64,000 bases of DNA, taken from NCBI GenBank assembly GCA_038231155.1, contig JBBRLY010000016.1, positions 21,506 to 85,505 on the forward strand, given 5' to 3'. The stretch is from Candidatus Saccharimonadales bacterium (lineage in GTDB: Bacteria > Patescibacteriota > Saccharimonadia > Saccharimonadales > JANWIN01). The number at the start of each line of letters is the position of its first letter. Positions within the stretch are counted from its first letter, which is position 1. Positions 31,142 through 60,143 of the stretch are shown here, piece after piece. The position numbers and the translations under genes were made by a program. A model generated the notes under the pieces. It was not told the origin of the DNA, searched no databases, and worked only from the letters and a program-made list of their open reading frames with translations.

Positions 31142-31277
31142 GTCACACCTCCTCAGGGGTGATAGAGCCTTCGTCTCTCAACTGACAGCGCGGAGAGCTT
31201 TCGCGCCAACTGGTACTTCCCCAGTGTGATTACGGACAGGTTTAACGACATGTCATGGTCGCTCAGGTTCGGTCCTC

Positions 31278-31940
31278 TCACGTCTGCGCAGCGCGCTGAC
31301 GATTGAGTTGTTCGCACACGATGGCGCAAACCAAGCCGAACACGAAGAAGCCAACACCGGCGATGGCGAGCACCCAGATGGTACCAGGCACCCACTTCCA
31401 GTGGTGGACTTCATCGGTAACTGCCCAACGTGTCTTCAAGCCCACGAAGAGGCCAATCAGACCGCCGAGAACCGCGACCAGCTGGCACCAGAGGCACCAA
31501 CTGCGGGGGTCGTACGGCGAACGCTGAACTTGAACCAGTGGAACTCGGTCCGTCATGACGGCGGCTACGGGTTCAGCTGGCGGTACTGCTGTTTCACGAA
31601 CGGGACTGTCGACTGGAACACTTGGTGCCGCACCGGTCAGGGGAACAGTCGATGAAGACGGTTCACCATCAGGCTCAGGCTCCAATATGCTCGTTCGACG
31701 AGTGATGACGCGTCCGCGAACGATGTGCTCGAATTGCTCAGCTTCCTCTTCGAGAACTTCATCATGGTCGTCGATGTCACGCATTGCGGCGCGGGCACCA
31801 ATGACAACGTTGTTGCGCTCCCGATTCAATGCCTCACGGGCATGCTTGATCTCGTGATCGCGTTTTCGGGCAGCCGCGGCAAGTTCGCCGAGAGCTTTTC
31901 GGGCTTCTTCAGCAGCTTCTTCTATGCGGTTGGTACTCAC
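31278..31940 (-). CDS. Membrane protein with an N-terminal charged coiled coil and two C-terminal TM helices (hypothetical), encoded in the GC-rich island.
   Basis: ORF call. Confidence 0.45.
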   Translation of the reverse strand: MSTNRIEEAAEEARKALGELAAAARKRDHEIKHAREALNRERNNVVIGARAAMRDIDDHDEVLEEEAEQFEHIVRGRVITRRTSILEPEPDGEPSSSTVPLTGAAPSVPVDSPVRETAVPPAEPVAAVMTDRVPLVQVQRSPYDPRSWCLWCQLVAVLGGLIGLFVGLKTRWAVTDEVHHWKWVPGTIWVLAIAGVGFFVFGLVCAIVCEQLNRQRAAQT

Positions 31941-32335
31941 TTATTTCCTCCTCCTTGGCTGGGGATTTGGTCGGTTTTCGGCCGAGTCTGTTGGACGATT
32001 CGTCCATTCGGTGTCACCCGATACTAAAGTCCCTGGTTGGGAGTTCAGAACAGCACTCTGCTAGCAAAAGTAGCGAACAGGGTGCTGCTCTGATTAGAAG
32101 AAAAAGTAAGTAAATGTTTTTGGGTATGTAATGTAGTCACATACTGTCTTGGGAAGCGGAATGGTCAAAAGACCCCTCAACGCCTCAACCGAGGACAGAC
32201 CGCCTATTACTAGTTACCTCTGTTAGCTAGTATTAAATGGTCTGCCCTGAGTTCACCAAGAACAGATATGAACTGTAATGATTCGACTTGTTAAAGTGCC
32301 CTTCGCTTAAGCGGGAAACAGATAGGCTTAGATGA

Positions 32336-45794: not shown

Positions 45795-45884
45795 ATTTGA
45801 AAAATCTAAATTAGTTAAACTTTCTACAATTGCAAAAACAGGGGTAGTCTGTTAAAGTTTCACGCGTTGCAATAGGCAATTTCA

Positions 45885-45961
45885 GGGCCATTAGCTCAGC
45901 TGGTTAGAGCACCTGCCTCTTAAGCAGGGTGTCCAGGGTTCGAGTCCCTGATGGCCCTCCA
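45885..45961 (+). tRNA. tRNA-Lys (anticodon CUU).
   Basis: A 77-nt cloverleaf with perfect acceptor stem gggccat/atggccc, an encoded CCA, and the T-arm GGTTCGAGTCC is present. Confidence 0.9.
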
Positions 45962-47587
45962 AGTATCGAAAATAGGCACTAAAGCTTCCTCCAACTCCTT
46001 TGGGGAGGTTTTTTTATTAGTTCTTACCCTTCTATACGAAGTCTCGAGCTCAGGATAGCCCTCTGCAATCGGTACTAACCAGTCGTTAGGTGTTATTTCT
46101 AAATGTCCGTCTTTTAAAACTAAGTTCTTACCCAAAGTTTTAAGCACGTCCCGTTTGTCCATCAGTGTGCCTGTTGCAAAACGCACTCGTGCGTAGGTAG
46201 CGAAATCAAACGCCTTCTCGGTTAGTTCCAACCAATCATCAGCTCGTTGCTCAGTACCACGTAGACCATCGTCTATACGTATAAGATCGGACTTTAGCCT
46301 GCTGCGCTGTTCAATGTATTCATCATCGTCAAGCAGGTCACGTGTGCGCATATCAACCAGTTTGTCTAAACGTTCTTGGATTTGCTCACGGCTGTGCTGC
46401 TGCATTTTATAAATACAGGTACGGTTTTTGCCCTCAATCTTATTGTTACGGCGCAGTACTTTAAGGGCAATGTCTCTAAACTCTGGCAGGATTGTATACT
46501 TTGCCAGCTCTTCCTCAATCTGGTTGTGAATATTTTCAACCCTCGTGTACTTGGTTTGCGTACAAGGGCGTGCCTCGCTTTTACGTGTGCAGTAGTAGTG
46601 GACGTACACTGCCATTTTATTATCACGCTTTACAAATTTGGTATTGGTCTTGCCTACGATACTACAACCACATTCACCGCACTTAATCATCCCCGCAAAA
46701 GAGTAGTCAAACACGCCCTTACGAGGCTTGCCCTTGCTGCCGAGTAAGGTTTGAGCATAGTCAAACTCATCAAGAGTAATCATCGGTTCGTGGTTACCTT
46801 TATAGATTTCACCGTTGTGTGATATCCAGCCTGCATAAAAGGGGTTGTTAAATATCTTATAAATCATACTGCTGTGCATAGAGCTGCCACCAATTTTACC
46901 GTTCTCACGAGTAATATACTTCCAATCATCGGTGGCTATTTTGTATATTTGTGAGGCGTTACGATTACCAGACAATAGCATTTGCCACATTTTCTTGACT
47001 GGCTCATAACGTAGGGGGTCATTAGCCGTGTGCATAATAACCTTGTTGTCTTTAGACCTCAGCTGAGGCAAGTGGTTTTCATCAAGCACAGGCACTTTCA
47101 TATAACCCTGAGGTACTTGCCCAGGACGCTCCCCATTTGCAGCTTTCTGCTCCATACCACGTTTAACGTCACGACCTTGCTTAGAGCTTTCGTACTGTGA
47201 CTGGTTCATCACCATTTGCAGCATCATAATACCCTCGGCGGAGTTATCAAAGTTAAAGGAGCAGAACTTTAGGTCTTTAAGTTCATTGCGTAGCATATAG
47301 GTTAGTGTTGCACTATCAAGCTCGTTACGTGACAGGCGATTGGGATGCCACGCAACAATACCATCGGCTTTGCCTTGCTTAATCATATCTATCATTTCGG
47401 CGAAGATTGGTCTGCCTGGCTTAAAGGCACTCTGGCTCTCGGGCTCAAGCCATTTAACGATATTGAGGCCTGGAAAGGCTCTTTTGATTTCTTTTATTTG
47501 TGACGGATGCGAAAGCTCTTGGCGTTCCTTACGCTCTTCTGACTTACGTACGTAAGCTATGTATCTTAGTTTGTTCTTGGTGTGCAT
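45920..47587 (-). CDS. Large serine recombinase (integrase).
   Basis: The N-terminal resolvase domain (YVRKSEE catalytic Ser, PNRLSRN) is followed by a recombinase domain, a zinc ribbon CGECGC...YYCTRK and a coiled coil. The 3' end overlaps the tRNA-Lys 3' end. Confidence 0.85.
   Translation of the reverse strand: MHTKNKLRYIAYVRKSEERKERQELSHPSQIKEIKRAFPGLNIVKWLEPESQSAFKPGRPIFAEMIDMIKQGKADGIVAWHPNRLSRNELDSATLTYMLRNELKDLKFCSFNFDNSAEGIMMLQMVMNQSQYESSKQGRDVKRGMEQKAANGERPGQVPQGYMKVPVLDENHLPQLRSKDNKVIMHTANDPLRYEPVKKMWQMLLSGNRNASQIYKIATDDWKYITRENGKIGGSSMHSSMIYKIFNNPFYAGWISHNGEIYKGNHEPMITLDEFDYAQTLLGSKGKPRKGVFDYSFAGMIKCGECGCSIVGKTNTKFVKRDNKMAVYVHYYCTRKSEARPCTQTKYTRVENIHNQIEEELAKYTILPEFRDIALKVLRRNNKIEGKNRTCIYKMQQHSREQIQERLDKLVDMRTRDLLDDDEYIEQRSRLKSDLIRIDDGLRGTEQRADDWLELTEKAFDFATYARVRFATGTLMDKRDVLKTLGKNLVLKDGHLEITPNDWLVPIAEGYPELETSYRRVRTNKKTSPKELEEALVPIFDTWRAIRDSNPGHPA
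45985..46017 (+). terminator. Intrinsic terminator after tRNA-Lys: a GC hairpin (cctcc...ggagg) plus a T7 run.
   Basis: The terminator is read directly from the sequence. A second copy lies at ~50995-51023. Confidence 0.5.
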
Positions 47588-47649
47588 ATCTTATCCTTAA
47601 TTTTATAACAAAATGTACTATTGAAATAGGTGTTAATACAGGCCATAGG

Positions 47650-48192
47650 CTATTTTCCTACACCGAAACGACTGGTCATTATTTCACCTAATGATTGAGC
47701 CCGATTGCGACTGGTTTTTGTATAGGGGGTAATTTCTGTAGTAGTTTTTGAAGTAATCTTCTGTGTAATCTTTGTAATAGATTGCTGGAAAGCCGCAAAC
47801 CCAGAGCCTATTTCCAGGTCTTTGAACTCGTCAGTTTCCAGCAGACTAATTATCACTAAGGAGAGGATATCCATATCAATATAAAAGTGTCGCTTTTGGG
47901 GGACACCTTTATTCTTGGTCTCAAGAAAGCCAAATGCTTTTAGATTTTTTATAGCACGGTCCTGCTTGTCTCTGCTCAGCCCCGTCTCTTTATAAAGCTC
48001 TGCCTGTGTCTTATAGAACGAATTATCCCGCCTGTGGCCCTTGCCACGCCAGTAGAGTAATTGGCTTAGGATAATGCCCTCATTTACACCAAAAATAAGG
48101 CCCAGCCCTGAGATATAGAGAATTGAGCTATTGGTAAACAAATTTTTAATCTGTTGCTGGCTTGGGCTGGCTTTGCTCATTGCTGTTCTCAT
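47650..48192 (-). CDS. Winged-helix DNA-binding protein, possibly a replication-initiator/DnaD-like N-domain.
   Basis: The pattern is weak: ...LSQLLYW...ELYKETGLSRDKQDRAIKNLKAFGFLE. Confidence 0.35.
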   Translation of the reverse strand: MRTAMSKASPSQQQIKNLFTNSSILYISGLGLIFGVNEGIILSQLLYWRGKGHRRDNSFYKTQAELYKETGLSRDKQDRAIKNLKAFGFLETKNKGVPQKRHFYIDMDILSLVIISLLETDEFKDLEIGSGFAAFQQSITKITQKITSKTTTEITPYTKTSRNRAQSLGEIMTSRFGVGK

Positions 48193-48359
48193 TCACATTT
48201 ATGCTTAGTAGTTGTTGCTTGCTTATTGGCTGGTAAATAAGCTCCATTTGGCGAACAAGCAGCTCTAATAGCCTCCTGGCTTCAAAAGACTTCAAGCTTA
48301 CGCCAAACCTTGCTTTATATGCCGACTGGAATGCCTCAACGTCAGACGTAATAACCATA

Positions 48360-48611
48360 TTAGCTACCGTACAGCCTATTTTTTAGCTGCCTGATAGCAT
48401 CAAAGTAGGCACGGGGTTCAATTGTTATGCTGCCTTTATGATACGAATTAACGAGTGTTTCTAAGCCCTCGCTCGTGACAAAACAAAAACCAGCCCTTTT
48501 GGGGTTGGTTCGTTCAATGCTCTGTAGTGATTGTCCCAATGCAATAAGTGTTGCTGCCAGTGGCAGGTCTTGTGTCGAATAGGTTTTCATACTGATTGCT
48601 TCATCGTTCAT
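48360..48611 (-). CDS. Hypothetical small protein carried by the element.
   Basis: ORF call. Confidence 0.3.
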   Translation of the reverse strand: MNDEAISMKTYSTQDLPLAATLIALGQSLQSIERTNPKRAGFCFVTSEGLETLVNSYHKGSITIEPRAYFDAIRQLKNRLYGS

Positions 48612-48673
48612 AAAACGATGGTATGACGTATGATTAACTAAAAATAACCCAAAGTTTACACGTAAATTTTAGA

Positions 48674-49291
48674 CTATTTTGGCAGACGCTTCTTATACTC
48701 TTGGATGTACCTGTTGATTTCTACATAGGTATCCGTGCATTTAAAAGCCTCGTTTATCTTTGCAACTATTTCGTTGGGCCTGAGGCCTTTTTGTTTGAGC
48801 AGGTACGCCATACGCATTTTCTCGTGCTTTCTCTTCGGTAAACCGTTAGGACGCTTCTTTGGTTCTATGCTTTCCTGCTTAAACTCTCGAAACAGCTTTA
48901 TGATTTCCTGTTCAGTCGTTTGTTCATAAAAAGTCATTTCGTATGTTGCCCTGCCTGACTTCTTGTCATTGTGCTCAACAATCATCGGACCACCTGCATC
49001 AAAACTGGAGTATTCGTTATAAAATATGTACCTTAATAGGCTGGCAAAAGAGGCTGCGGTTAACCCATAAGTACCTTGGTGGAAGAACTTAAGCCTTATG
49101 TCATTATGTAAGCCATCAACTAATTCAAGATTTTGTACTATCCATTCTGGTTCGCCAGTGTCAAACGTGGGTTTCTTTGGTGTGGTTATATGCCACTTTC
49201 TACGAATAGCCCGTACGTCTTTTTGAAACCTAGCACTATCAACAAGCTCGTGGGCACGTTGCTGTTCTTTGTAGCTTCGCTTATCCTTCAT
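48674..49291 (-). CDS. Hypothetical protein carried by the element.
   Basis: ORF call. Confidence 0.35.
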   Translation of the reverse strand: MKDKRSYKEQQRAHELVDSARFQKDVRAIRRKWHITTPKKPTFDTGEPEWIVQNLELVDGLHNDIRLKFFHQGTYGLTAASFASLLRYIFYNEYSSFDAGGPMIVEHNDKKSGRATYEMTFYEQTTEQEIIKLFREFKQESIEPKKRPNGLPKRKHEKMRMAYLLKQKGLRPNEIVAKINEAFKCTDTYVEINRYIQEYKKRLPK

Positions 49292-49345
49292 TTACATACT
49301 CATCCATATACTTATTCTATCAACTTCGTAGGATATAATTAGTCT

Positions 49346-49753
49346 ATGCAAGTAACCACACGCACCAGAGGACGACCAACTGTATTCCATAATGAAGTTG
49401 TCCATAAATTGGAGCAGGCATTTGCTATTGGGTGCACGGTAGAAGAGGCCTGCATCGTATCTGGTGTGTCACGCTCCGCTTATTACAACAAACTAAATAA
49501 TGACCCTGATTTTATGGACAGAATGGCACGTATCCAGCTCTTTTTGATAATTAAGGCACGGCACACTGTATATGACGCCATTCGTAGGGGCGATACTAAG
49601 ACAAGTAGGTGGTATTTAGAGCGTAAATGTAGAGATGAGTTTGGTGCGCAAACACAGAACCATAATGCAGCCAGCACCCAACTAGACAGCTACACGGAAG
49701 ACGAGCTACGCAGAATAGCTGCCGCCACTACATATCCTTATACAGCCTCTTGA
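49346..49753 (+). CDS. HTH DNA-binding protein (terminase-small-subunit-like or regulatory).
   Basis: An N-terminal HTH (GCTVEEACIVSGVSRSAYYN) is present. Confidence 0.4.
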   Translation: MQVTTRTRGRPTVFHNEVVHKLEQAFAIGCTVEEACIVSGVSRSAYYNKLNNDPDFMDRMARIQLFLIIKARHTVYDAIRRGDTKTSRWYLERKCRDEFGAQTQNHNAASTQLDSYTEDELRRIAAATTYPYTAS

Positions 49754-49828
49754 ATGCTGTGAGTGCGTTGTAGCATTCAAAGCCACTGATGTTAAAGTTG
49801 TATTTCTACGTTTTGCCCATTTTGATTA

Positions 49829-50236
49829 CTATATTCCCAGTAATTGTTTTTTCTTGGCGTCAAAATCAGCTTGGGTAATGATACCCTTTTCTTTCAAGTC
49901 TGCAAGCTTTTCAAGCTCATCCGTAGGAGATGGGGCTGTACTTGTTTGAGGCTTATCGCTCTCCATTGCGCTAATAATAGCTTGCCGCAAGGCTTTTTTG
50001 TCCTTAACAGCGGTTGTGTACTTTTTGCCACCTGTTGTTTCTATAATGACTGTCCTTTGGCCCATAGTGCCAAGCTGTACACTCGCTATCTGATTGAGTG
50101 GGATACTCTCGTTCTCGCCCAAACGCTTCAATTCAATTCTATTTTTGTATACTCTAGCTCGTGAACCCATAACGCTTGCCTCATATAGTGGCTGCTCTTC
50201 ATTGGTTTGGTCGCTATTCCTGTTAAATAAACTCAT
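49829..50236 (-). CDS. SHOCT-domain protein with an N-terminal bacterial PH-like region.
   Basis: The C-terminal motif LEKLADLKEKGIITQADFDAKKKQLLG is a SHOCT motif. Confidence 0.55.
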   Translation of the reverse strand: MSLFNRNSDQTNEEQPLYEASVMGSRARVYKNRIELKRLGENESIPLNQIASVQLGTMGQRTVIIETTGGKKYTTAVKDKKALRQAIISAMESDKPQTSTAPSPTDELEKLADLKEKGIITQADFDAKKKQLLGI

Positions 50237-50282
50237 CGTTCTTTCCTTTCATTTAGTAGTATTAGCGTGTCCAAATAAAAAA

Positions 50283-50410
50283 GGACAACCAATCTAGGTT
50301 GTCTACACCAAACAACAAGGTTGAACCTGCTGCCTTTCGACTGGTTGCCCTTTTTATCGGTTCAACCAAAAAAGCATTAAGCTTTTGCTCGTTGTTTAGT
50401 GTAGACATAC
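50283..50410. repeat. Nested inverted repeats. Outer arms are gtctacaccaaacaac/gttgtttagtgtagac; inner arms are ggttgaacc/ggttcaacc. They could form a ~115-bp cruciform or stem-loop.
   Basis: The repeats are read directly from the sequence, upstream of the SHOCT gene. Confidence 0.5.
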
Positions 50411-50936
50411 TAATAATAGCGTATCTGCACATAGAAACGTACTAATTGTAAGGGGTGATTGTAGTAGAGTTTGGCTAGGTTCTTTTATTGTACAAGTTCA
50501 TTGGCAAGCTGTACCACGTTCGTTGTACAACCCCAAGACAGGGTATAACCTGCATCACCGTGTCCATAGTTATGAATGATGTGTTTACTGCCAATGGCAT
50601 TGATTTAGGTGCTTGGCTTTAAATTGCGGCTACTACTGAGCCTACGACCTTGTGGAGTTATCTTTTTGTGTATTCAGTAAAGTAGTAATAGCCAGCGGTA
50701 ATAATACTTAAAAAGATAAACACGAAAGTCCAATCAAATCTAACGTTGTTATTATTTGTTAAACTAATATAGCAAGTTGGCAAGTTCTCGTTATTAGACA
50801 TATCCCAAAACATCCATAGCCAAAATATAACTAACAAGACTGGTATTAACAAAAAAATTAATGTCATCAACGTAATTATAGTCTATTTAACGACCACTAA
50901 GTGCAAGACAAACAAATTGTTATCCGCTTGGATAGC

Positions 50937-50966
50937 AGTTGCGATAGAGTTGACGATGAACCTCCA
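50937..50966 (+). repeat. att-like repeat R1 (agttgcgatagagttgacgatgaacctcca).
   Basis: It matches the tRNA-Lys 3' end (gatggccctcca) and the gttgcRatag motif. It is extended by a ~60 bp copy of the tRNA downstream region. Confidence 0.6.
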
Positions 50967-51022
50967 AATATCGTATATCGGCTCTAAAGCTTCTTCCAAC
51001 TCCTTGGGGGGAGGCTTTTTTG

Positions 51023-51673
51023 TTAGGCAAGTCCGAGCAGCTTAAGTGCCGTATGCGGATCAAGTCCGACTTGACCAGCCACTTTTATAGCAAGACTAAC
51101 CACTTCCAACGTTCCTTTTATGGTAGGAAGGCTTTTCTTTAGTGCTTTCGCAAACTTGTTCTCTTTACTGGCCTCATCAGGGTATTGATGTTCCAGATTG
51201 GTTAGCTTCTCAGTAAGGGTTACTATGGTTTGATTAACTTCAACTTGAACGCTTGTAGTCTGAGCAACTTGTTGGTCTGCATTCAAATGGTTGTTAATGG
51301 TTGTGGGAGACAGACCTGCCGCTTGCTTGCTGAATTTAGGTTGCTGAGGATACGCACACCAATAACCCACGACCTTATCAACCTTAAACATATAGTTTGC
51401 AACCCCACTGAGTGCTCTTACATAGGCCTCGCCAGTTACGAAAGAGCCTGTACGCTCTGTACTGCGAATTGTAAGCTTGAAGTCATTGAGCTTGCTGTCG
51501 TGAGTAAGGCCAAATAGTTCGTCAATATATGCATTTAGTCTCTCGCCCTCACCGTTGCGAAGTGATAATGATGTGATGTCAGGAGTTAGAGCCTCAATAA
51601 GCGAACAGAGTAGCTCGTATAGCTTTATCAGTGGCTCATTGCGTGGAATTGTGGGCTCGTCATCGTCAAACAT
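51023..51673 (-). CDS. Hypothetical protein (cassette cargo).
   Basis: ORF call. Confidence 0.4.
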   Translation of the reverse strand: MFDDDEPTIPRNEPLIKLYELLCSLIEALTPDITSLSLRNGEGERLNAYIDELFGLTHDSKLNDFKLTIRSTERTGSFVTGEAYVRALSGVANYMFKVDKVVGYWCAYPQQPKFSKQAAGLSPTTINNHLNADQQVAQTTSVQVEVNQTIVTLTEKLTNLEHQYPDEASKENKFAKALKKSLPTIKGTLEVVSLAIKVAGQVGLDPHTALKLLGLA

Positions 51674-51722
51674 ATCTATGATTATATACCTGCAATTATC
51701 AAATGCCTCGTCTCCGTTAAAC

Positions 51723-51753
51723 TAGTTGCGATAGACAAGACGATGGACCTCCA
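51723..51753 (+). repeat. att-like repeat R2 (tagttgcgatagacaagacgatggacctcca).
   Basis: 31/31 identical to R4. Confidence 0.6.
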
Positions 51754-51759
51754 TACTGC

Positions 51760-51987
51760 TTATGCTTTAATACTTCTTTTTGGAGTCTTTATATTTTGTT
51801 TAGAATAAACTGAAAAATAATAAACAATACCTCCTACGAAAGGTCCACCTAATAACAGCACTAAAATCCAACCAATTTTGTACGGTATTTTACTTTTAAT
51901 GACGTGTATAAGCATGATTGCCCATAAAATAATAAGCCCTAACACTATTAGTGGCACAACATAGAGGAATATGAATTTCATATTCAA
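51760..51987 (-). CDS. Small two-TM membrane protein (cassette cargo).
   Basis: ORF call. Confidence 0.35.
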   Translation of the reverse strand: MNMKFIFLYVVPLIVLGLIILWAIMLIHVIKSKIPYKIGWILVLLLGGPFVGGIVYYFSVYSKQNIKTPKRSIKA

Positions 51988-52083
51988 ATATTAGCATATT
52001 GATTTTCAGTTGCGTTAGTATGTACAGTGGCCCTCTAAGCACATTGTACAATAAACTTGACAGTATAATCTAATGTATATACA

Positions 52084-52368
52084 ATGGATTATATGAAAAC
52101 GGCAGTGGTTAATTTTAAGACTGATGAAGCTACTAAGCTTAAGGCTCAGAAAGTAGCTAATCAAATTGGTATACCCCTAAGTAACCTCCTGAACGCATAC
52201 CTGTACGAACTCGCAAGCACAGGCAGTGTCCATTTCACTGCATCTGAACCTATGACTGAAAAGATGGAAATAATGATAGCCGAAGCCGAAAAGGAAATAG
52301 CAGCAGGCGATGTAAGTGGCCCATTTGAGTCTCTAGAGGATATGTTTAAGCACCTAGATAGTCTTTAA
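52084..52368 (+). CDS. DinJ/RelB-family type II antitoxin.
   Basis: An RHH-type N-terminus (VVNFKTDEATKLKAQKVANQIGIPLSNLLNAYL) is present, and the gene is immediately followed by a YafQ-like toxin. Confidence 0.65.
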   Translation: MDYMKTAVVNFKTDEATKLKAQKVANQIGIPLSNLLNAYLYELASTGSVHFTASEPMTEKMEIMIAEAEKEIAAGDVSGPFESLEDMFKHLDSL

Positions 52369-52369
52369 A

Positions 52370-52627
52370 ATGGTTATCGAGACTACGAAAGCTTTTGATA
52401 AACAGTATGCCAAGTTAAATAGCAAGACCAAGACTTCTTTTAAAAAACGCGTAGAACAATTTAAAGCAAACCCATTTGACATAAGTTTAAGAAATCATAC
52501 GCTTAAAGGAAAGTATTTGGGCTTTAGGAGCATCGATATTACAGGTGACGTGCGAGCACTATATACAACTCAAGGTGATACGATCATTTTATTTGGATTT
52601 ATAGGGACACACAGCCAGTTATATTAG
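52370..52627 (+). CDS. YafQ/RelE-family type II toxin (mRNA interferase).
   Basis: An 85 aa ORF with the ...LKGKYLGFRSIDITGDVRALY...IILFGFIGTHSQLY pattern. The gap to the antitoxin is 1 nt. Confidence 0.7.
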   Translation: MVIETTKAFDKQYAKLNSKTKTSFKKRVEQFKANPFDISLRNHTLKGKYLGFRSIDITGDVRALYTTQGDTIILFGFIGTHSQLY

Positions 52628-52647
52628 GCCTATTAGTCTTAATTTTA

Positions 52648-52676
52648 TTTGCGATAGCACGCACGGTGGCCCTCCA
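52648..52676 (+). repeat. att-like repeat R3 (tttgcgatagcacgcacggtggccctcca).
   Basis: It carries a tRNA-Lys 3'-end copy, tggccctcca. Confidence 0.55.
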
Positions 52677-52793
52677 AAGATACATTAACAGATACCGGAT
52701 AGTTCCAATAACAGTACACCTGTTTTAGTAACACTAATTTGTATCTGTTATTTAATTCCACTCTCTATTGGTCTTATTTGGTATCATTTAGTT

Positions 52794-53189
52794 ATGACTA
52801 GTTACATTAAAGACCCCCGAATAGACGAATACATATGTGGCCTACCTGAATGGCAAGTAGCTATTTGTAATCAAGTTCGAGAGCTAATTCACTCAGCTGA
52901 CGCAGACATAGTAGAAACCATTAAATTCACAAATAGACCCTACTTTATTCTGAACGGTAACATCTGCGCTCTGTTAGCTGCTAAAACCCATATTAACGTG
53001 TTTATTTACGACCCGATTGCTCCTGACCCAGAACATATCATTAATCAGGGTCACGGCAATCAGACGGCTCGGTCAATTCAAATTGATGAAAATGATGAAA
53101 TTAATTCAGTTGCATTGAAAAACCTTATCAAGGAAGTTGCAAATAATAATAAAGCAGGTGGTTGGCGTAAAATAAAGGAGAAATTATGA
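52794..53189 (+). CDS. DUF1801 (YdhG-like) domain protein.
   Basis: This is a pattern-based call. Confidence 0.5.
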   Translation: MTSYIKDPRIDEYICGLPEWQVAICNQVRELIHSADADIVETIKFTNRPYFILNGNICALLAAKTHINVFIYDPIAPDPEHIINQGHGNQTARSIQIDENDEINSVALKNLIKEVANNNKAGGWRKIKEKL

Positions 53190-53578
53190 CTATAAATTTA
53201 GCTGCAATCGCAGTCTGCACTTTGGGAGCATTCGTATTAAGTAGTGTGTGGTATATGGCTTTAGGTAAACAGCGGGCCCGACTACTTGGCCTTGACATTA
53301 AGGTTGAGCAGCGTCCAAAACCAAAAAATATTATCCTTGAGCTACTAAGAACATTTGTATTGGCCTTAGTTTTCGCGATTGTACTATCCGAAATGAAAGA
53401 CTCCAGCCTGCACGCATCACTGTTACTCGGTATTAGGTTGTGGCTGGCATTCCCATTCATACTACTGAGCGGTTCAGTTATGTGGGACAAGGTACCAGCT
53501 AAACTCGCTGCGATTCATGCCGGAGATTGGTTTATCAAACTAGCATTAATAGCATTGATTGTAGGTGCTTGGCGTTGA
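53186..53578 (+). CDS. DUF1761-like small membrane protein.
   Basis: It has four TM helices and overlaps the upstream gene by 4 nt. Confidence 0.45.
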   Translation: MTINLAAIAVCTLGAFVLSSVWYMALGKQRARLLGLDIKVEQRPKPKNIILELLRTFVLALVFAIVLSEMKDSSLHASLLLGIRLWLAFPFILLSGSVMWDKVPAKLAAIHAGDWFIKLALIALIVGAWR

Positions 53579-53582
53579 ATGG

Positions 53583-53613
53583 TAGTTGCGATAGACAAGA
53601 CGATGGACCTCCA
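53583..53613 (+). repeat. att-like repeat R4 (tagttgcgatagacaagacgatggacctcca).
   Basis: Identical to R2. Confidence 0.6.
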
Positions 53614-53660
53614 TTACGGTTATGCTTGCATAATTTACGAAAAGATGTAATCTCTGAATC

Positions 53661-53999
53661 ATGAGATTAGTTATAGCTAGAGGACATGTTCTTGAAGAAG
53701 GTGAAGGTTGGTTACGTGTTGGCCCTGTTCCTGGTAAATATACACCAATACCTGTAGAGGATTTTGTAGGTGAATTTCAAAGAGTACCTTTAACTGTCGA
53801 TTCAGCAAACGAAGATTGGGAAGAACGTTTTCCAGATTATTATGACAATAGTGAAGTTCCTTTGCGTTTTAAAGGTTCCTCCATTGTAGATGGTTTACAC
53901 GTTGCGGTTGAAGGTATTCATTTTCGCTCAGGCAGACTAAGAGGTATCCTCAATCTTTCTGCAGTTGAAGTTGTTCAAGATCAATCCGACCAAGCTTAG
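53661..53999 (+). CDS. Hypothetical protein (cassette cargo).
   Basis: ORF call. Confidence 0.35.
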   Translation: MRLVIARGHVLEEGEGWLRVGPVPGKYTPIPVEDFVGEFQRVPLTVDSANEDWEERFPDYYDNSEVPLRFKGSSIVDGLHVAVEGIHFRSGRLRGILNLSAVEVVQDQSDQA

Positions 54000-54027
54000 T
54001 TGCCATAGCACCGACTGTGGCCCTCCA
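53997..54027 (+). repeat. att-like repeat R5 (tagttgccatagcaccgactgtggccctcca).
   Basis: It carries the tRNA-Lys 3'-end copy, is followed by a small hairpin (gcataagc...gcttat), and has a T-run. Confidence 0.55.
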
Positions 54028-54072
54028 AGCATAAGCGTTATACTTCATGCTTATTTTTTTTGTTATGATAAT

Positions 54073-54486
54073 AGAGTGGGTTATATATTTGTCTTAGGTT
54101 ATGTTGTTCTGGTAGGTATTGCAACTTTCTTAATGAAAATTGGACTTAAATCATTAAGTCCTTATCAGTTAAACTTTTTAATTGGAATAGGTATGTTAGT
54201 CACTGGCATACCAGCTTTACTTATTGCTCATAAGACTTTCAGGATGCCTACTAAGGAATTACCTCTCGGATTGCTTATCGGAATCATGATGGCTGCTGGT
54301 TCGCTTTTATATGTTTTGGCATTTAACAAACTCTCAGCCAGTGTTGCTTCCGTCCTTGCCACACTCTATGTAGCAGTAATTGTTATTTTGTCCTGGATAT
54401 TTCTTAAAGAAGGTTTTGATGCGGTAAAGATACTTGGACTTATATTTGCTTTTGCTGGCGCCGTGCTGCTAACTCTTAGGGCTTAA
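54073..54486 (+). CDS. EamA/DMT-like small membrane transporter. The probable start is GTG.
   Basis: It has 4-5 TM helices and an EamA-like C-terminal pattern. The start was moved downstream of R5. Confidence 0.45.
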   Translation, partial: RVGYIFVLGYVVLVGIATFLMKIGLKSLSPYQLNFLIGIGMLVTGIPALLIAHKTFRMPTKELPLGLLIGIMMAAGSLLYVLAFNKLSASVASVLATLYVAVIVILSWIFLKEGFDAVKILGLIFAFAGAVLLTLRA

Positions 54487-54489
54487 TTG

Positions 54490-54519
54490 TAGTTGCAATA
54501 ACTCTGACTGGGTCCTACA
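54490..54519 (+). repeat. Degenerate att-like repeat R6 (tagttgcaataactctgactgggtcctaca).
   Basis: It is a degenerate match to the R consensus and is flanked by ttgtag/ctacaa inverted repeats. Confidence 0.4.
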
Positions 54520-54626
54520 ACTTGATTATTCTCAATTTTGTGGTAGAGTTTGCATATGTCTAGTGAATTTGGATTTAAAGTCGAACAATCTTTGACTTAA
54601 TATATATAGTATGTTAAAGTATATGT

Positions 54627-54914
54627 ATGAGAAAAGTTATTGCCGCTGGAATTTTAGTTGCAGCATCTGCAGGTGTAGGTGGTGGAGCATATATATTTGA
54701 TAAAGGTTTAGAAGCAAATCATAAATCTGATCATCTTGCTTCAACTATTGACACATATCCCTTAAATGAACAGATTGATGTATCCAGTAAAGCTGAGAAG
54801 AATGCAGAGCACGGTCTAGAAGACATACTTACCGGTACTATCATTGTAGGTGTTGGGGCCGGAACTTTATTCCTTGCGGGTGTTGAATTAAAGAATTCGA
54901 CTACACAAAGCTAA
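54627..54914 (+). CDS. Hypothetical small exported protein.
   Basis: ORF call. Confidence 0.3.
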   Translation: MRKVIAAGILVAASAGVGGGAYIFDKGLEANHKSDHLASTIDTYPLNEQIDVSSKAEKNAEHGLEDILTGTIIVGVGAGTLFLAGVELKNSTTQS

Positions 54915-54971
54915 AAAAATTAAGACTTTATATATAACAAACTAAGTCTGACAATCAACGGCTTTCAAACT

Positions 54972-55223
54972 ATGACTAACATCCGGTTTATGGACCGCTC
55001 CTTAGAGGTACGTTTGAAGATCGATAACCCCGATAGTCTTATGGAACACTTTAATGATATTACCCGCCCAGCTCGAGGTAAACCAGATCCCAGTAGTCGA
55101 GTTCCATCTACTGGTGAAGTTCAATCCGGTGCAGTGCTTTATAAAGATAGGCACATAGTTGTGACTTTTCTAGGTATGACTGCACAAGATCAAGCAAAAA
55201 TTCGTATTTTGAATTTTAGTTAA
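54972..55223 (+). CDS. Hypothetical protein.
   Basis: ORF call. Confidence 0.3.
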   Translation: MTNIRFMDRSLEVRLKIDNPDSLMEHFNDITRPARGKPDPSSRVPSTGEVQSGAVLYKDRHIVVTFLGMTAQDQAKIRILNFS

Positions 55224-55319
55224 ATTATTGACTATATAAAAACTGTAGATTTCTTAAGTTAGAAGATTCTACCTTCAGAAAAGTTTTTAATCTATCTGTA
55301 GATCGCTTATTTTAACTAG

Positions 55320-56012
55320 CTACTCTTGCATCGGTGTCGATATCTGATGACTGAGTGCATCTCTTAGAACGGCAAAACCAATTCGACGAGCAGTTTCATT
55401 AAGTGCTATAAATTTTTCAGCCTCCAGTTTTGGCATTGTAACAATCCGGCGCATAGCTTCTCCATAGGCTTTTGCTCCTATAATTTCTATATCTTTTTTA
55501 TTCGTGTAACTATAGTATCTTCTTTCACCGGATTTTGTAGTGTTAAATCCGATGTGTAATTTACCTTCAGGATCTATTCGTAAATTTTTCGGCAATGGAT
55601 AATACCAAATTTCAGCTTGAACTTGACCAATTGTTCCCCGACCGCTGCTTTTAGCGTCTCCTGTAAAAACAAATCCTCGGTAGTTTGGGATTTGAGCTTT
55701 AGAAATATCTGATTGAAGTTTATGAGTTTGTGCTCTACTCTTGAACTTCCAACCCCTTTGATTTGCATCAAGTAATCGATCATACGGATTATTCATCACC
55801 GTCAGTTTAATATTGGCAATTGTACCGTTAAATTTTGGTGGTCTTATTAATTCTTTAAGTGGTAAACGACTCTGCCAAAGTATATGGTTGTAGAAAGGGT
55901 CGACTTCAGGAGCGACTAGGCCTTCAAATGCAGCTAATTCAGTTATATCCGAAAGTTCGAAGATATTTCCAGGCTGCAACAAATCTACTTGCGGCACAGG
56001 AACTTCAGTCAT
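55320..56012 (-). CDS. Hypothetical protein.
   Basis: ORF call. Confidence 0.4.
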   Translation of the reverse strand: MTEVPVPQVDLLQPGNIFELSDITELAAFEGLVAPEVDPFYNHILWQSRLPLKELIRPPKFNGTIANIKLTVMNNPYDRLLDANQRGWKFKSRAQTHKLQSDISKAQIPNYRGFVFTGDAKSSGRGTIGQVQAEIWYYPLPKNLRIDPEGKLHIGFNTTKSGERRYYSYTNKKDIEIIGAKAYGEAMRRIVTMPKLEAEKFIALNETARRIGFAVLRDALSHQISTPMQE

Positions 56013-56292
56013 ATATGTACTATGTCATATGTGTAACATTATTCAAATATTTGGCTGGAATTGTTATTAGGCAAATAGATTCCAGTTATGCTTGCCTTGA
56101 ATTTAAATAATGTCAGATTTATAGGTGAGTAAAATAAATTGCTACGAATGTAATACTGTTTGCTGCGCGGACTAGAAATAATGTTTGGCGTTCCTCCTAC
56201 ACCTGATTTTCTATAATCATGCGGTTAAATTGTATAAAGTTGCAAACTTTTAAGCTGTACTTTAAGATATGCTATATCCTAATGGAGACTTT

Positions 56293-56598
56293 ATGGATGC
56301 TGAACTAGGAGTTAAAGCGGCCATTCAACCTTAGTTTGAAGAATTAACTTCAGCTGGTAGAACTGACCATGAACAAGTCCGAACAGAACAAATCGATGAA
56401 TACTCTTTAAGAGTTAGAGAGGTATTAATAGACGGGCTAAACGCTGTAACTTTGGATTCTGAACAATTAGATTCAGTTGCAAGACAAATAGGCACTACCA
56501 TTAGAGATGCTTTAGAACATGGCTTACAAATAGGTTTAGAGTCTGGAAGTAAAAACTTCCATATACCAGTAGATGAAGTTTCCATGTTAGCTGGCTGA
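56293..56598 (+). pseudogene. ~100-codon reading frame interrupted by an in-frame TAG (56332-56334).
   Basis: The frame reads MDAELGVKAAIQP*FEELTSAGRTDHEQ...VDEVSMLAG as a single frame, and the 88-codon downstream part has no start codon. Confidence 0.3.
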
Positions 56599-56640
56599 GA
56601 TTAAAAAGCTGAATTTTTAATTTTGCTAAATCATTAAATT

Positions 56641-56796
56641 CTAGTCTTTTAGATTATCGCCTAAATGATTTATTTTATTTTTAACTACTCCCTTTGTTTC
56701 TTGTACTTTACCTTTTACTTCAAGTCTCTTATTATTTGTCACTTTACCAACAACTTGTTTAGATTTACCGCTGATTCGATCTGATGTACTACTCAT
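56641..56796 (-). CDS. CsbD-like small stress-response protein (51 aa); absent from the ORF track.
   Basis: The translation MSSTSDRISGKSKQVVGKVTNNKRLEVKGKVQETKGVVKNKINHLGDNLKD matches the CsbD repeat pattern. Confidence 0.6.
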   Translation of the reverse strand: MSSTSDRISGKSKQVVGKVTNNKRLEVKGKVQETKGVVKNKINHLGDNLKD

Positions 56797-56996
56797 ATCA
56801 ACTCCTACTCTCTTTAATATACTCTAAAGAGTATGTATTAAATTATTTAAACTAACTGTGGGAAAGCTCACATACTGGATTAATAATTAAGTCTATAATA
56901 GGTGTTACAAGCTAACATTTTTCACACAATAATATAATTGCGTTATTAAATTGCTAGCTATTGTTATATTTTAAATAATCAAAAGAAAGGATTCAT

Positions 56997-57146
56997 ATGT
57001 TAATGGCAATCGCATTAGTACTGGTTGTACTTTGGGCATTTGGCTTTTTTGCAATTCATATTGGCGGCAACTTGATACACATACTACTTGTAATAGCTTT
57101 AGTTGTATTTATATACAATATGCTTATGGGCAAACGAATCGTTTAG
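56997..57146 (+). CDS. lmo0937-family small membrane protein (49 aa); absent from the ORF track.
   Basis: The translation MLMAIALVLVVLWAFGFFAIHIGGNLIHILLVIALVVFIYNMLMGKRIV fits the lmo0937 family. Confidence 0.65.
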   Translation: MLMAIALVLVVLWAFGFFAIHIGGNLIHILLVIALVVFIYNMLMGKRIV

Positions 57147-57232
57147 TCTGACGTTTTTAGTAATTCCGATTGTTGTCTGGGGTTTAGCCAGTTTAAAAAA
57201 TAATTGAAATAATCAATATCATCACTCAGGAT

Positions 57233-57709
57233 ATGGCTATGCTTGACATCGCTGATTGTAGCAGTCAATTATTGAGTATGTGCAATCCGTTTGATGAGTC
57301 AGAGCCTAATAGGTATGAAGAAATGTCTATTGATGAGATTATTGATGAAGCTTTACAAAGACTTGATGGTGTAATGCTCACTCCGCAACAAGCTGGGGAA
57401 ATACTGGACTATCGACTTTACCAACTTGAAATTATAACAGGTGAAAACGGGCTAGAGTTTGATGAATTTGTCAGCGATGAAGAGTTTGCATTGAGTGAAA
57501 TTGCCCAGGGTCAAGATCCAAGAAGTTTTGGTGATGCTTATAGAAAATATCACGTTAGTTTCAAAGGGCTTCCTCTTTTAGGCGGCGTTAGGGAAACCGG
57601 ACTAGCTAACGACTTAACTAATGGGGATATCTGGAGCGAAATTAACGTCTGGAAGCTAAGTAGTGATTATCGCAACCGTCGTGAAACTTCTTATATACTC
57701 AGTGTTTAG
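57233..57709 (+). CDS. Hypothetical acidic protein.
   Basis: ORF call. Confidence 0.35.
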   Translation: MAMLDIADCSSQLLSMCNPFDESEPNRYEEMSIDEIIDEALQRLDGVMLTPQQAGEILDYRLYQLEIITGENGLEFDEFVSDEEFALSEIAQGQDPRSFGDAYRKYHVSFKGLPLLGGVRETGLANDLTNGDIWSEINVWKLSSDYRNRRETSYILSV

Positions 57710-58418
57710 AGTCATTACTTTGCATTAACTGACCCACGGAGTAAATAATTAGTAATCCAAAACCAAGACTGGTTATTACTTGAGCCACAAATAATAAATG
57801 AATAACATTTATTAATGTTAAAAGGCCCATAAAAAAGCCGAGTGACTGAATAATTAATAATAAAAAATTAACTCTTTTTCTTTTCACTACCAAAGTTAGC
57901 CATATAGCAAAACCCATTTCGTAGTAAAACAGCATTAGCCCAATCAGAATATGCAGATTATCAAGTGTTTTATTTAATTTATAAGGATAGGTTGAAGCCA
58001 AAACCGACAGTATTAAGCACGCTAAGATGTAAAGACCATAACGCAGACGGTTATACAATTTGGAGGAGGAGGGAATAAATCGAGCAGCTTTTAAAATAAG
58101 TAAACTGCTACCTAAAAAAGCTAGCGTGAAAGGCAATATGGTAGCTCGGTGCACTCCAAAATTACTAATCCCACCTTCATCACGACTAAATAAAAAATCG
58201 GGCATTAGTGAAATACATAGGATAACAAAAATAAAGAAGCATAGTTGACTCAAAGTAAGATAACGGATTGATCTAGAAGCCATGTGTTTTAGTATAAAGT
58301 ACGGTTTAAACTTTTTAGGTTTGAAAAAAAATAAACAGCTTGCCCATATATGTATTATAGATTCAATGAATTCTTTTGATATTATTACTACATGACTGAT
58401 CTTAGTGATGGGCATCAT
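57699..58418 (-). CDS. Polytopic membrane protein (hypothetical).
   Basis: Six to seven TM helices. Confidence 0.4.
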
Positions 58419-60143
58419 AAAAATCGATTAATTAATAATGGACAGTCAGTTGATCAACAACCTCCGCTAACAAATAAACATAACTTAAACTTATTTCATA
58501 AATTTCCGAGGCCGAATTGGTTATTAGTTTTTATCGGGCTGGCAACTCTTGCTGTAGTCGCTGTAGCCGTACTTGCTTCAAAACGGCACATCAGTCAAAT
58601 TACACCAAATACTCAGACCAGCGCGAACCTATCTGATATTCATAAAATCAAACATGTTGTTATCATAATGCAGGAAAACCGATCGTTTGATAGTTACTTT
58701 GGTACGTACCCAGGTGCCAATGGCATACCAATGCAAAACGGAACTCCAACCGTTTGTGTTCCAGATCCGGCCAGCGGCACATGCCTAAAACCTTACCATG
58801 ACTCGAATGACAAGAACGCTGGAGGACCGCATGGTCAGGTTGATGCTACTGCCGATATTAGCAATGGCCAAATGAATGGCTTTATTGCTCAAGCCGAACA
58901 TGCCAGCAGCAACTGTGCACCTAATGCTCCAGCCTGTACTGGTGGCAAACAAACAGATGTAATAGGATATCATGACGGCAGTGACATCCCCAATTACTGG
59001 TCTTATGCTAAAAACTATGTATTACAAGATACAATGTTTGAACCAAACTCCTCCTGGAGCCTACCACAACACTTATTTATGGTTTCTGAATGGTCAGCTA
59101 AGTGTAGCCAAGCTGGTAATCCGAAGTCATGCATCAATGCTTTAGAAAGTCCTAGTAATCCACCAGATTTTATCGCAGGAATTCAGAACAACTTGATTAA
59201 TAAATGTCAAAACGATGCTCGTGCTACAGCCTGCCAAAAAGCCTTAGAAGGTATCGGTATTACTATTGCCATGGCTAGTCAGCTTCGCATGTTAATCGCC
59301 CAGAACTGCAAACCTTCCAACAGCTTCACTCAATGTCAGGATACTTTAAAGAACACGACTCTTCCCGCTAATCTCATACAAAAGTTAATTACAGCTTCTA
59401 ATCAGTTAATGCCGCCAGATTATGCCTGGACCGATATGACCTATTTACTGCATAAGAACAAAGTGTCATGGGGATACTATGTATTTAATGGTACTGAACC
59501 AGATTGCCAGGATGACTCCGCAGTTACCTGTGCCGCAGTTCCTCAAAACGCTAAGACTCCAGGAATTTGGAACCCGTTGCCGTATTTTGATACAGTTAAA
59601 CAAGATGGTGAACTTAACAATGTTCAACCCTTAACCAACTTTTACACCCAAGCTAAAAACGGTACGCTGCCGGCCGTTAGTTGGGTAAGTCCGACGGCTT
59701 CAGTAAGCGAACATCCACCAGGACTTGTCAGCAGTGGCCAAGCTTATGTTACAGGTCTAATTAATTCAATTATGAAAAGTCCTGACTGGAACAGTACAGC
59801 AATATTCTTGAGCTGGGATGATTGGGGTGGTTTTTATGATCATGTTGTACCACCAAAGGTCGATCAGAATGGCTACGGCTTACGTGTACCAGCCATTGTG
59901 ATTAGCCCCTACGCAAGGCAAGGTATGATTGATCACCAAACCCTTAGCCATGATGCTTATAACAAATTCATTGAAGATGACTTCTTAAATAGTCAGCGCC
60001 TTGATCCGAATACCGATGGACGGTTTGATCCACGTCCTGATGTAAGGGAAAACGCCTCACAACTTGGTAACTTGGTTAGTGATTTTAACTTTAATCAGCC
60101 ACCCAGAAAGCCACTTATATTACCTGGCGGGACAACGTATTAG
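58392..60143 (+). CDS. Phosphoesterase family protein (phospholipase C / acid phosphatase AcpA-like), with a signal or anchor sequence.
   Basis: The phosphoesterase hallmark [21 protein letters not shown] is present. Confidence 0.8.

Follow-up and report, generated by a model that had tools for sequence, protein, structure and literature searches.

Tandem arrays of small gene cassettes delimited by a repeat ending in the tRNA-Lys 3' end in Saccharibacteria, and their probable origin in integration by a large serine recombinase

Integrons, and the clusters of attC sites without an integrase (CALINs), hold small cassettes in a single orientation, mostly co-oriented and including toxin-antitoxin genes, each ending in a recombination site; insertion occurs at one fixed proximal site, and most arrays are found without a recombinase. 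Tandem stacking is likewise known from tycheposon islands (bioRxiv 10.1101/2020.12.28.424599), from composite islands of the staphylococcal cassette chromosome (SCC and SCCmec; PMC11470126), and from streptococcal cis-mobilizable elements (CIMEs; PMC5704250). Here we describe an array in a 64,000-nucleotide stretch (the window) of a Candidatus Saccharimonadales genome (assembly GCA_038231155.1, contig JBBRLY010000016.1, positions 21,506 to 85,505), in which seven copies of a repeat, termed R, delimit six small cassettes downstream of a tRNA-Lys gene and of an integrated element encoding a large serine recombinase (LSR). The window, with ~40% G+C throughout most of its length, is a fragment of a Saccharibacteria genome. 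These bacteria are ultra-small epibionts with reduced genomes, and little is understood of how they keep and trade accessory genes. Literature searches returned no earlier description of such arrays in Saccharibacteria or Patescibacteria.

A first-pass annotation, made from the sequence of the window alone, had proposed repeated tandem capture at a tRNA attachment site or a cassette platform on which the neighbouring serine recombinase acts, with no described equivalent. The proposal gained support from arrays found downstream of tRNA-Lys in ~100 other Saccharibacteria genomes, while the claim of novelty was too strong, as tycheposon islands, CIME accretion, and LSR-driven SCC cassettes all come close. 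Like the tycheposon islands (bioRxiv 10.1101/2020.12.28.424599), the locus lies in a streamlined genome at a tRNA gene, with units stacked in tandem and partial tRNA copies between them; in both, most islands lack an integrase, members resembling phage-inducible chromosomal islands (PICIs) with replication and terS genes occur, and cargo and defence genes are carried. Newcomers to tycheposon islands displace older elements inward, a succession resembling the one proposed below. In the element adjoining the array, the tycheposon- and PICI-like traits were an LSR gene abutting tRNA-Lys, proteins of PHROG 9773 and PHROG 4102, and, in relatives, distal defence cargo; its partial tRNA copy measures 10 to 12 nt, or ~28 nt counting a degenerate part. 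Whereas tycheposons are separated by ~40 nt of partial tRNA and 910 of 937 use tyrosine recombinases, with an LSR in a minority (bioRxiv 10.1101/2020.12.28.424599), here the separator joins a ~28-nt conserved non-tRNA arm to 10 to 12 nt of tRNA, no recombinase other than an LSR was seen, most units are single-gene cassettes of 0.3 to 0.9 kb conserved at both ends, and the host phylum is Saccharibacteria.

The SCC and SCCmec composite islands (PMC11470126) share with this locus the use of LSRs, a single conserved housekeeping gene targeted at its 3' end, att-delimited tandem cassettes, and defence and accessory cargo. Cassettes lacking ccr (pseudo-SCC) are mobilised by the recombinase there, for which we would expect a counterpart here. 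The target here is tRNA-Lys instead of rlmH, however, the cassettes are 10 to 100 times smaller, and the LSR is not a Ccr, since its NCBIfam scores were 68.9 bits for CcrC (cut-off 900), 56.9 for CcrB (cut-off 900), and 37.3 for CcrA (cut-off 700). Orthology to XisF was also rejected, the match being far below the NCBIfam cut-off. Streptococcal CIMEs (PMC5704250) likewise target the 3' end of tRNA-Lys(CTT), consist of att-flanked modules without integration genes, and occur in tandem with a functional element, with which they can be mobilised in cis; they differ in being served by tyrosine integrases and conjugation and in being decayed and kilobase-scale, whereas up to at least 10 single-gene units with a shared conserved site are found here. 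Carriage of neighbours in cis is documented for all three: CIMEs (PMC5704250), tandem SCC cassettes (PMC11470126), and tycheposons (bioRxiv 10.1101/2020.12.28.424599). Unlike integrons, the array has no IntI, no attI/Pc, and no attC hairpin; its site is conserved in sequence and not in structure, its cassettes carry their own promoter and terminator modules, and its proximal site is the 3' end of a tRNA gene. By the defining tests of the integron, SCC, and Xer families, the array belongs to none of the three. It is set apart by its combination of an LSR, a tRNA target, a phylum-conserved separator one third of which is tRNA, and very small self-expressed cassettes.

The window was searched with the pattern TAGTTGCRATAG-N9-TGGMCCTCCA, allowing up to 3 mismatches. 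Six matches were obtained, all on the + strand (50936, 51723, 52007, 52646, 53583, and 53997), against none in 100 of 100 dinucleotide-preserving shuffles. With one further copy recognised by a profile built from matches across genomes (see below), the array comprises seven repeats and six cassettes of 253 to 906 bp. R1 (CAGTTGCGATAGAGTTGACGATGAACCTCCA, 50927 to 50966) is the attR, or right-end junction, of the LSR element; the same motif terminates homologous LSR elements. It is followed on the same strand by R2 (51723 to 51753), R2b (CAGTTGCGTTAGTATGTACAGTGGCCCTCTA, 52007 to 52037; 3 mismatches to the pattern, profile score 17, E = 0.003), R3 (52646 to 52676; profile score 39), and R4 (53583 to 53613) and R5 (53997 to 54027), both found by pattern and profile; the first 3 nt of R5 supply the TAG stop codon of the preceding open reading frame (ORF). 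Over 32 nt, R2 does not differ from R4; both belong to an ACAAGAC/TGGACC subfamily that also includes the attR of the LSR element at related locus L111. R6 (TAGTTGCAATAACTCTGACTGGGTCCTACAA, 54490 to 54520, + strand) fell outside the 3-mismatch pattern and gave only a partial profile match (54484 to 54500; E = 0.03, search of 6 kb). Because it lies on the array strand, immediately behind the stop codon of EamA, and has the 11-nt head TAGTTGCAATA, it is a probable decayed terminal copy.

The first-pass annotation had listed six repeats with a spacer of 7 to 9 nt, bounding five units. Its R1 to R5 lay within 1 to 2 nt of the positions found here and the repeats do share a pattern, but the copy at 52007 had been missed, R6 is decayed, and the spacer is fixed at 9 nt. 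With R2b, the unit holding a PLDc_N protein and RelB/YafQ is split in two, giving six cassettes with the gene content as originally described. The reported identity of R2 and R4 held, as did the reading of the last 10 to 12 nt of the repeats as a copy of the tRNA-Lys 3' end; the repeats also stood apart from shuffled controls, a comparison by which the annotation could have been refuted.

The repeats are copies of one conserved site of ~38 nt, tAAttwyAG-TTGCRATAG-N5-AC-NN-TGGCCCTCCA-A. In the window, the last 12 nt of the repeat are identical to the 3' end (GATGGCCCTCCA) of the tRNA-Lys(CTT) gene at 45885 to 45961 (+ strand; ARAGORN; Rfam tRNA, 69.6 bits). Over the last 28 nt of R, a weaker likeness to the tRNA was seen, with 7 of 13 further positions matching. 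R can be read as a putative element-side arm of ~28 nt (tAAttwyAG TTGCRATAG N5 AC GR) joined to a tRNA-shared core, TGGCCCTCCA. A weak coding imprint was also detected: read antisense in the frame of the LSR, R varied more at third positions (0.24 vs 0.14). The repeat head GTTGCAATA (GTTGCAATAG in the leader) occurs at 45866 to 45874, 9 to 10 nt 5' of the window tRNA-Lys. The idea that R arose by joining a tRNA leader to a tRNA 3' end was rejected: GTTGCAATAG was absent from the leaders of 56 other tRNA-Lys genes, and its presence here is therefore treated as a coincidence, probably due to chance.

Other identities for R were examined and discarded. The alternative that the repeats are ordinary terminators, which the first-pass annotation had itself raised, was tested with a terminator scan, and no G+C-rich hairpin followed by a T run was found at any R; terminator-like hairpins lie downstream of R, in the trailers (for example, 50990 to 51013). 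When the seven copies were folded as single-stranded DNA with 20-nt flanks, no common hairpin appeared (z, -2.05 to +0.92), so R is neither an attC-like site nor a terminator. No Rfam family was matched in 50900 to 54700, even at E <= 1. A promoter within R was not supported, as inspection revealed no -10 box suitably spaced from TTGCRA on either strand and the promoter scan listed none. A dif/Xer-like 11-6-11 dyad was dismissed on inspection of the consensus: TTGCRATAG and TGGCCCTCCA are not inverted copies of each other, and all sites are direct.

The LSR gene (45920 to 47587, - strand) encodes a protein of 555 aa with the Pfam domains Resolvase (PF00239, E = 8e-20), Recombinase (PF07508), and Zn_ribbon_recom (PF13408), all above cut-off, a match to PHROG 95 (integrase; E = 2e-64), and a YVRKSEE motif with the expected serine near its N terminus. 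The gene is convergent with tRNA-Lys, and its last 14 codons (WRAIRDSNPGHPA) and stop codon are read from the antisense strand of the tRNA 3' half (45920 to 45961), the stop lying in the anticodon loop. This overlap was kept in every homologue inspected (L111 to L135). Because the C terminus of the LSR is encoded by antisense tRNA, excision of the element must alter it, and this could provide a switch linked to the state of integration. The tRNA-Lys 3' end (GATGGCCCTCCA), read from the sequence as the attachment target, makes the attL junction of the adjoining element. Between the tRNA and R1, only one CCTCCA and no other junction containing it was present, making R1 the first junction. The ~5-kb satellite-like element (45962 to 50935, with R1 extending to 50966), delimited by PHROGs, Pfam, and its conserved backbone, is therefore bounded by two hybrid att junctions, one of them inside the target gene. 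The link to the adjacent recombinase drawn in the first-pass annotation is borne out by these boundaries, which homologues share. Besides the LSR, the element encodes a replication-initiator-like (O-like/DnaD-like) protein (Rep-like; 47650 to 48192, PHROG 9773), DUF5659 (48360 to 48611, Pfam), and a small-terminase-like (terS-like) protein (49346 to 49753, PHROG 4102), as well as a 70-aa ORF, a 205-aa ORF, a SHOCT protein, and a small membrane ORF, all within 45962 to 50935.

Homologues of the LSR were found at 58 to 82% identity in nine metagenome loci and at 57 to 63% in further assemblies (7 contexts; 56 to 82% over both sets), and the family numbers 688 proteins at E <= 1e-20. Every context reaching far enough overlapped the tRNA-Lys 3' end in the same manner. 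The backbone of LSR, Rep-like protein, 70-aa ORF, and DUF5659 was conserved in L111 to L128, and the far end, where reached, was the R motif (L111, L112, L113, L119, L123, and L127). The distal cargo of these relatives was variable and often consisted of defence genes, including DISARM-like genes, restriction-modification, and AAA_15/21, so that the flexible region is tied to a large LSR-element family carrying defence systems. In JAICKC010000006 and JBBRAC010000002, the same layout recurred, with tRNA-Lys, an LSR element of 11.5 or 17 kb, R, and at least 5 further R copies. Genetics in this phylum is only beginning, and the LSR with its tRNA-Lys site could serve for site-specific integration.

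To determine the distribution of the site, one genome per species (GTDB representatives) was scanned with the exact pattern TTGCNATAG-N5-AC-NN-TGGMCCTCCA. Matches were present in 109 stretches, nearly all from Saccharibacteria, compared with ~2 expected by chance by our own estimate from the information content of the pattern. Two lone matches, in a Ktedonospora isolate and a Dehalococcoidia chromosome, agree with this chance expectation; the remaining carriers were Saccharibacteria or contigs of metagenome-assembled genomes (MAGs) filed under other names in which tRNA-Lys is followed by R copies. Loci with the same repeat or the same flanking gene order came almost entirely from Saccharibacteria genomes. 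The conserved span extended from -9 to +28 (consensus, tAAttwyAG TTGCRATAG CgTcy AC GR TGGCCCTCCA A), and the conservation held in 74 copies outside the strict search pattern. A profile built from the matches recovered 307 copies in 110 sources, with a uniform orientation of R in 109 of them and a median spacing of 760 bp (interquartile range, 611 to 1263), reaching up to 7 copies per 8 kb. On contig DAIQON010000002 (adjacent loci L065, L060, and L023), at least 10 copies extended over 18 kb. The relation to tRNA-Lys was fixed: in 56 of 56 cases, R lay downstream of the gene (mostly CTT, some TTT) on the same strand, with a median gap of 682 nt. On the far side of the tRNA, housekeeping genes were syntenic, including FolD, a MurD-like ligase, glutamate racemase, and response regulators. 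With the tRNA-Lys hotspot next to folD and the ~38-nt signature, the flexible region can be located in any Saccharibacteria genome or bin.

A tRNA-Lys(TTT) gene was noted within a run of R copies at L002 (1640 to 1715), with R on either side; its close relative L003 lacks this tRNA gene at that position. This could represent either two abutting arrays or a tRNA gene travelling as a unit. Site-bearing contigs, several with tRNA-Lys upstream, were also observed under foreign MAG labels (L008, L021, L030, L031, L075, L078, and L109), namely Magnetospirillaceae, Bacteroidetes, Polynucleobacter, Nevskiaceae, Limnocylindrales, and Acidobacteriota. In the one such contig checked, the flanking gene was of the Saccharibacteria type, and these contigs are probably binning or labelling errors. 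The R signature may accordingly be used as a binning marker that flags mis-binned contigs such as those of the 'Polynucleobacter', 'Nevskiaceae', and 'Bacteroidetes' MAGs.

Comparison of the locus across related genomes, suggested in the first-pass annotation as a check for cassette shuffling, revealed differences in both the presence and the order of cassettes. Closely related genomes differed by whole cassettes, with breakpoints exactly at ...CCTCCA|. Between L003 and L030, tRNA-Lys is 100% identical and a cassette, termed S, is 97% identical, and L003 holds an extra 563-bp unit, with its own terminal R, between the tRNA ...CCTCCA and S, the flanks being 97 to 100% identical. S is therefore first after the tRNA in L030 and second in L003. 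Cassette S and its R are then followed by three unrelated continuations (L002/L003, L030, and L098), which diverge right after CCTCCA-A. Similarly, the RelB/YafQ cassette of the window recurs near tRNA-Lys in L045 with 74.5% nucleotide identity over 52049 to 52677, an alignment that starts 12 nt past one repeat and ends one nucleotide past the end of the next.

Two variants of the core travel with the left arm, A in TGGACCTCCA (ACAAGAC subfamily) and C in the L003 copy; hence, strand exchange is placed within or just to the right of CCTCCA, which brackets the putative crossover to CCTCCA(A). R1 and its trailer contain ACGAT-N12-ATCGT, centred on T|C of CCTCCA. An imperfect palindrome, ATAGCGT...ACGCTTAT, centred on TGG|CCC, was considered as the crossover and set aside because it disagrees with this bracket.

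On this evidence, the R repeats are best read as attachment-site junctions left by LSR-driven integration at the tRNA-Lys 3' end, forming a tandem array, a reading to which we assign a probability of about 70%. We infer that the recombinase-less cassettes owe their movement, in trans or in cis, to these LSRs, and our account of the exact crossover position and of how cassettes first formed is of the same kind. In the proposed mechanism, the LSR would recombine the tRNA-Lys 3' end with an incoming site made up of three parts: the R arm, the core in common with the tRNA, and a trailer by which the 3' flank of the tRNA is restored. A cassette would then consist of a left end copying the tRNA trailer, usually with a terminator and often with an extended -10 box, followed by one or two genes and a right-end R. 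New units would enter next to the tRNA and displace older ones outward, giving an array of single orientation. The autonomous members would be the elements of 5 to 17 kb, which encode an LSR, a Rep-like protein, and DUF5659 along with defence cargo and, in some, a terS-like gene; they look like phage satellites or tycheposons. Cassettes of 0.3 to 0.9 kb could move in trans as small circles, or else in cis, if an LSR element excised via a more distal R, took its neighbours along, and re-integrated elsewhere. The mechanism predicts an empty-site junction of ...CCCTGATGGCCCTCCA joined to AATATCGTATATCGGCTC, an element-circle junction of ...GCGATAGAGTTGACGATGAACCTCCA joined to AGTATCGAAAATAGGCAC, and, for a single-cassette circle of cassette 3, the R3 arm joined to AGCACATTGTACAATAAAC. 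A more tentative extension, which we consider possible yet somewhat improbable, is that the system is a serine-recombinase counterpart of the integron: circles with an attP-like site of R and tRNA trailer (~53 bp) would be captured one by one at the tRNA-Lys 3' end by LSRs acting in trans, giving a phylum-wide pool of self-expressed single genes and the main flexible-genome mechanism of Saccharibacteria.

Several points weigh against LSR-driven integration as the source of the junctions. Any LSR sequence was detected in only 1 of the 109 array loci within their 8 kb (by tblastn, a C-terminal remnant next to tRNA-Lys in L024), so that for most arrays the enzyme is unseen. No excised circle or empty site was encountered, all LSR contexts inspected being integrated, and neither the site nor the LSR had a match in IMG/VR viral contigs. 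Canonical phage-type LSRs recombine attP with attB only. To build or edit an array, either an attL still usable as attB is needed or a relaxed choice of partner, for which there are reports from LSRs of the Ccr or TnpX type. Homologous recombination at a 38-nt repeat could yield the same breakpoints, the quality of R copies shows no clean gradient from young to old away from the tRNA, and the origin of the unit of trailer, gene, and R is without explanation.

A rival account is pure accretion and decay, in which each R marks a full LSR (or other) element reduced to its distal cargo, leaving CIME-like fossils whose units were never mobile alone. Tandem accretion followed by decay is documented at streptococcal tRNA-Lys (PMC5704250) and in tycheposon islands (bioRxiv 10.1101/2020.12.28.424599), many R copies are degenerate, and the remnant in L024 is what such decay would leave. 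In the window itself, the trailer and terminator of cassette 1 (50967 to 51020) were 89% identical, by blastn and alignment, to the attL side of the L111 element, indicating that cassette 1 occupies the place of an older LSR gene. Left ends of this LSR type nevertheless accounted for only 12 of 272, and the Rep-like protein, 70-aa ORF, DUF5659, and 205-aa ORF had no tblastn match in the 109 array loci, which together with the conservation of both unit ends argues against simple decay of full elements. The units are also compact, with intact ORFs at the 760-bp spacing given above, and a given unit can differ between loci in its rank and in its neighbours, the breakpoints being exact. We therefore regard decay as an unlikely explanation of the arrays as a whole. 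Integration by LSRs, the reading preferred here, has in addition to be set against an unseen recombinase of another kind, integron-like or an Xer-like tyrosine recombinase, acting in trans on arrays with which the LSR elements merely share a hotspot. Integron-type and Xer-dependent systems do move recombinase-less modules, most arrays have no LSR nearby, and the LSR element at L129 contains a Phage_integrase gene. Yet at least 6 independent LSR elements terminate in the element-side arm of R, and R has neither the hairpin of attC nor the dyad of dif. The first-pass annotation had reported no integrases in the units, and indeed Pfam searches of the window ORFs revealed no recombinase between R1 and R6. 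The scan of window ORFs around the array and past it revealed no tyrosine recombinase, and none recurred in flanking clusters or in the 129 in-array ORFs of 170 aa or longer across loci, in which no recombinase family had two or more members. Such an enzyme is thus very unlikely.

It is also conceivable that R is kept for a role in RNA or transcription, as a tRNA-like 3' processing or stability tag or as punctuation or a terminator, with exchange as a by-product of homologous recombination. A bias of this type is visible in the ORFs of at least 70 aa within arrays, since 249 of 327 (76%) were co-oriented with R and 78 opposite; R often supplies the TAG stop codon, modules of trailer and terminator follow it, and in the window/L045 cassette pair R matched at 27 of 31 nt by our own count, against 74.5% overall. 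However, R lacks a 5' acceptor strand, which precludes a tRNA-like helix, it showed no conserved fold, no Rfam match, and no terminator structure in the searches described above, its copies decay freely, and it also closes units with genes on the opposite strand (cassettes 1 and 2). We consider this the least probable of the explanations. The 3:1 bias toward co-orientation with R is explained if cassettes carry their own expression signals, as the trailer modules with a -10 box and the promoter of the RelB/YafQ cassette indicate.

In the window, cassette 1 (50967 to 51722) begins with the LSR-type trailer and terminator, followed by a 216-aa ORF (51023 to 51673, - strand) with no match in Pfam, PHROGs, or PADLOC. 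Cassette 2 (51754 to 52006) encodes a 75-aa PLDc_N membrane protein (Pfam; 51760 to 51987, - strand). Cassette 3 (52038 to 52645, + strand) encodes RelB (52084 to 52368) and YafQ (52370 to 52627), both assigned by Pfam, and has its own promoter, TTGACA-17-TACAAT, at 52057 to 52085. Cassette 4 (52677 to 53582, + strand) opens with a conserved 'c-type' module of ~117 nt (52677 to 52793) ending in an extended -10 box, followed by the Pfam families DUF1801 (52794 to 53189) and DUF1761 (53186 to 53578). Cassette 5 (53614 to 53996, + strand) carries a 112-aa ORF (53661 to 53999) from the ORF list with no Pfam family, and cassette 6 (54028 to 54489, + strand) carries a single-domain EamA protein (Pfam) after a trailer and terminator, AGCATAAGC...TTTTTTTT. 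The EamA ORF of 173 aa ends at 54486, and since the Pfam match starts only at residue 38, the GTG at 54076 is the likely start of the protein. PADLOC gave no match for the cassette proteins without a known family. Exact-protein look-ups of the window cassette genes returned only the same arrangement, from two samples, with contigs broken at R2/R4. These Logan contigs of the same strain (SRR24807096 and SRR19962015; L001, L126, L136, and L137) also break inside tRNA-Lys. As short-read contigs break at identical repeats, such arrays will be fragmented and under-reported in most metagenome bins.

Across the arrays, the 327 in-array ORFs had a median length of 149 aa and were highly diverse in content. 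The gene types observed included RelB/YafQ and PIN toxin-antitoxin genes, NUDIX and HAD hydrolases, methyltransferases, a sortase, M23 peptidase, APH-family phosphotransferase, MFS transporters, DUF1801, DUF4287, and DUF5674. Once arrays are located by their signature, cassettes can be catalogued, the types seen so far being toxin-antitoxin systems, NUDIX/HAD proteins, methyltransferases, sortases, transporters, and Pfam APH-family kinases. For the tiny genomes of Saccharibacteria, the array looks like a shared swap-shop of accessory genes.

The left ends of the units were recurrent trailer types, found directly after R or after a real tRNA. The types comprised ATACGCTTATGCTTAAA with a terminator, AGCATAAGC... 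with a terminator, and a module of ~110 nt starting with AAGATACNTAAACAGATACC. The 'a-type' (ATACGCTTATGCTT) and 'b-type' (AGCATAAGCRYTATG) left ends were at one point considered to be an inverted 14-mer, but a direct alignment was better, and they are variants of one tRNA trailer consisting of GCNYTATG, an A-rich stretch, and a terminator. The non-coding ~110-nt module (AAGATACNTAAACAGATACC...GTATCTGTTATTTAGTTC) always lay directly after the CCA of R or of tRNA-Lys, and preceded unrelated genes, the start codon of which lay ~10 nt beyond its terminal extended -10 box (TGnTAyAnT). It was found at 52677 to 52793 of the window and in L004, L026, L034, L038, L041, L043, L057, L084, L088, L091, L101, L108, and L111. 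The module had no Rfam match; it could act as a promoter or regulatory unit that is portable, or else be a structured RNA.

Past R6, at 54520 to 58400 of the window, several small ORFs (95, 83, 230, 158, and 239 aa) match no family and lack homologues in the related loci. It may be that they are older cassettes, with repeats now too decayed to be recognised. A phosphoesterase (58392 to 60143) is the first annotated gene after them. Elsewhere in the window, G+C rises to 57% at 30000 to 32000, compared with ~40% in the remainder. This zone contains two ORFs (30041 to 31141 and 31278 to 31940, - strand) without a Pfam family and may be foreign DNA or encode low-complexity surface proteins. A tmRNA gene at 13160 to 13558 (Rfam RF00023, 55.3 bits) is unrelated to the array.

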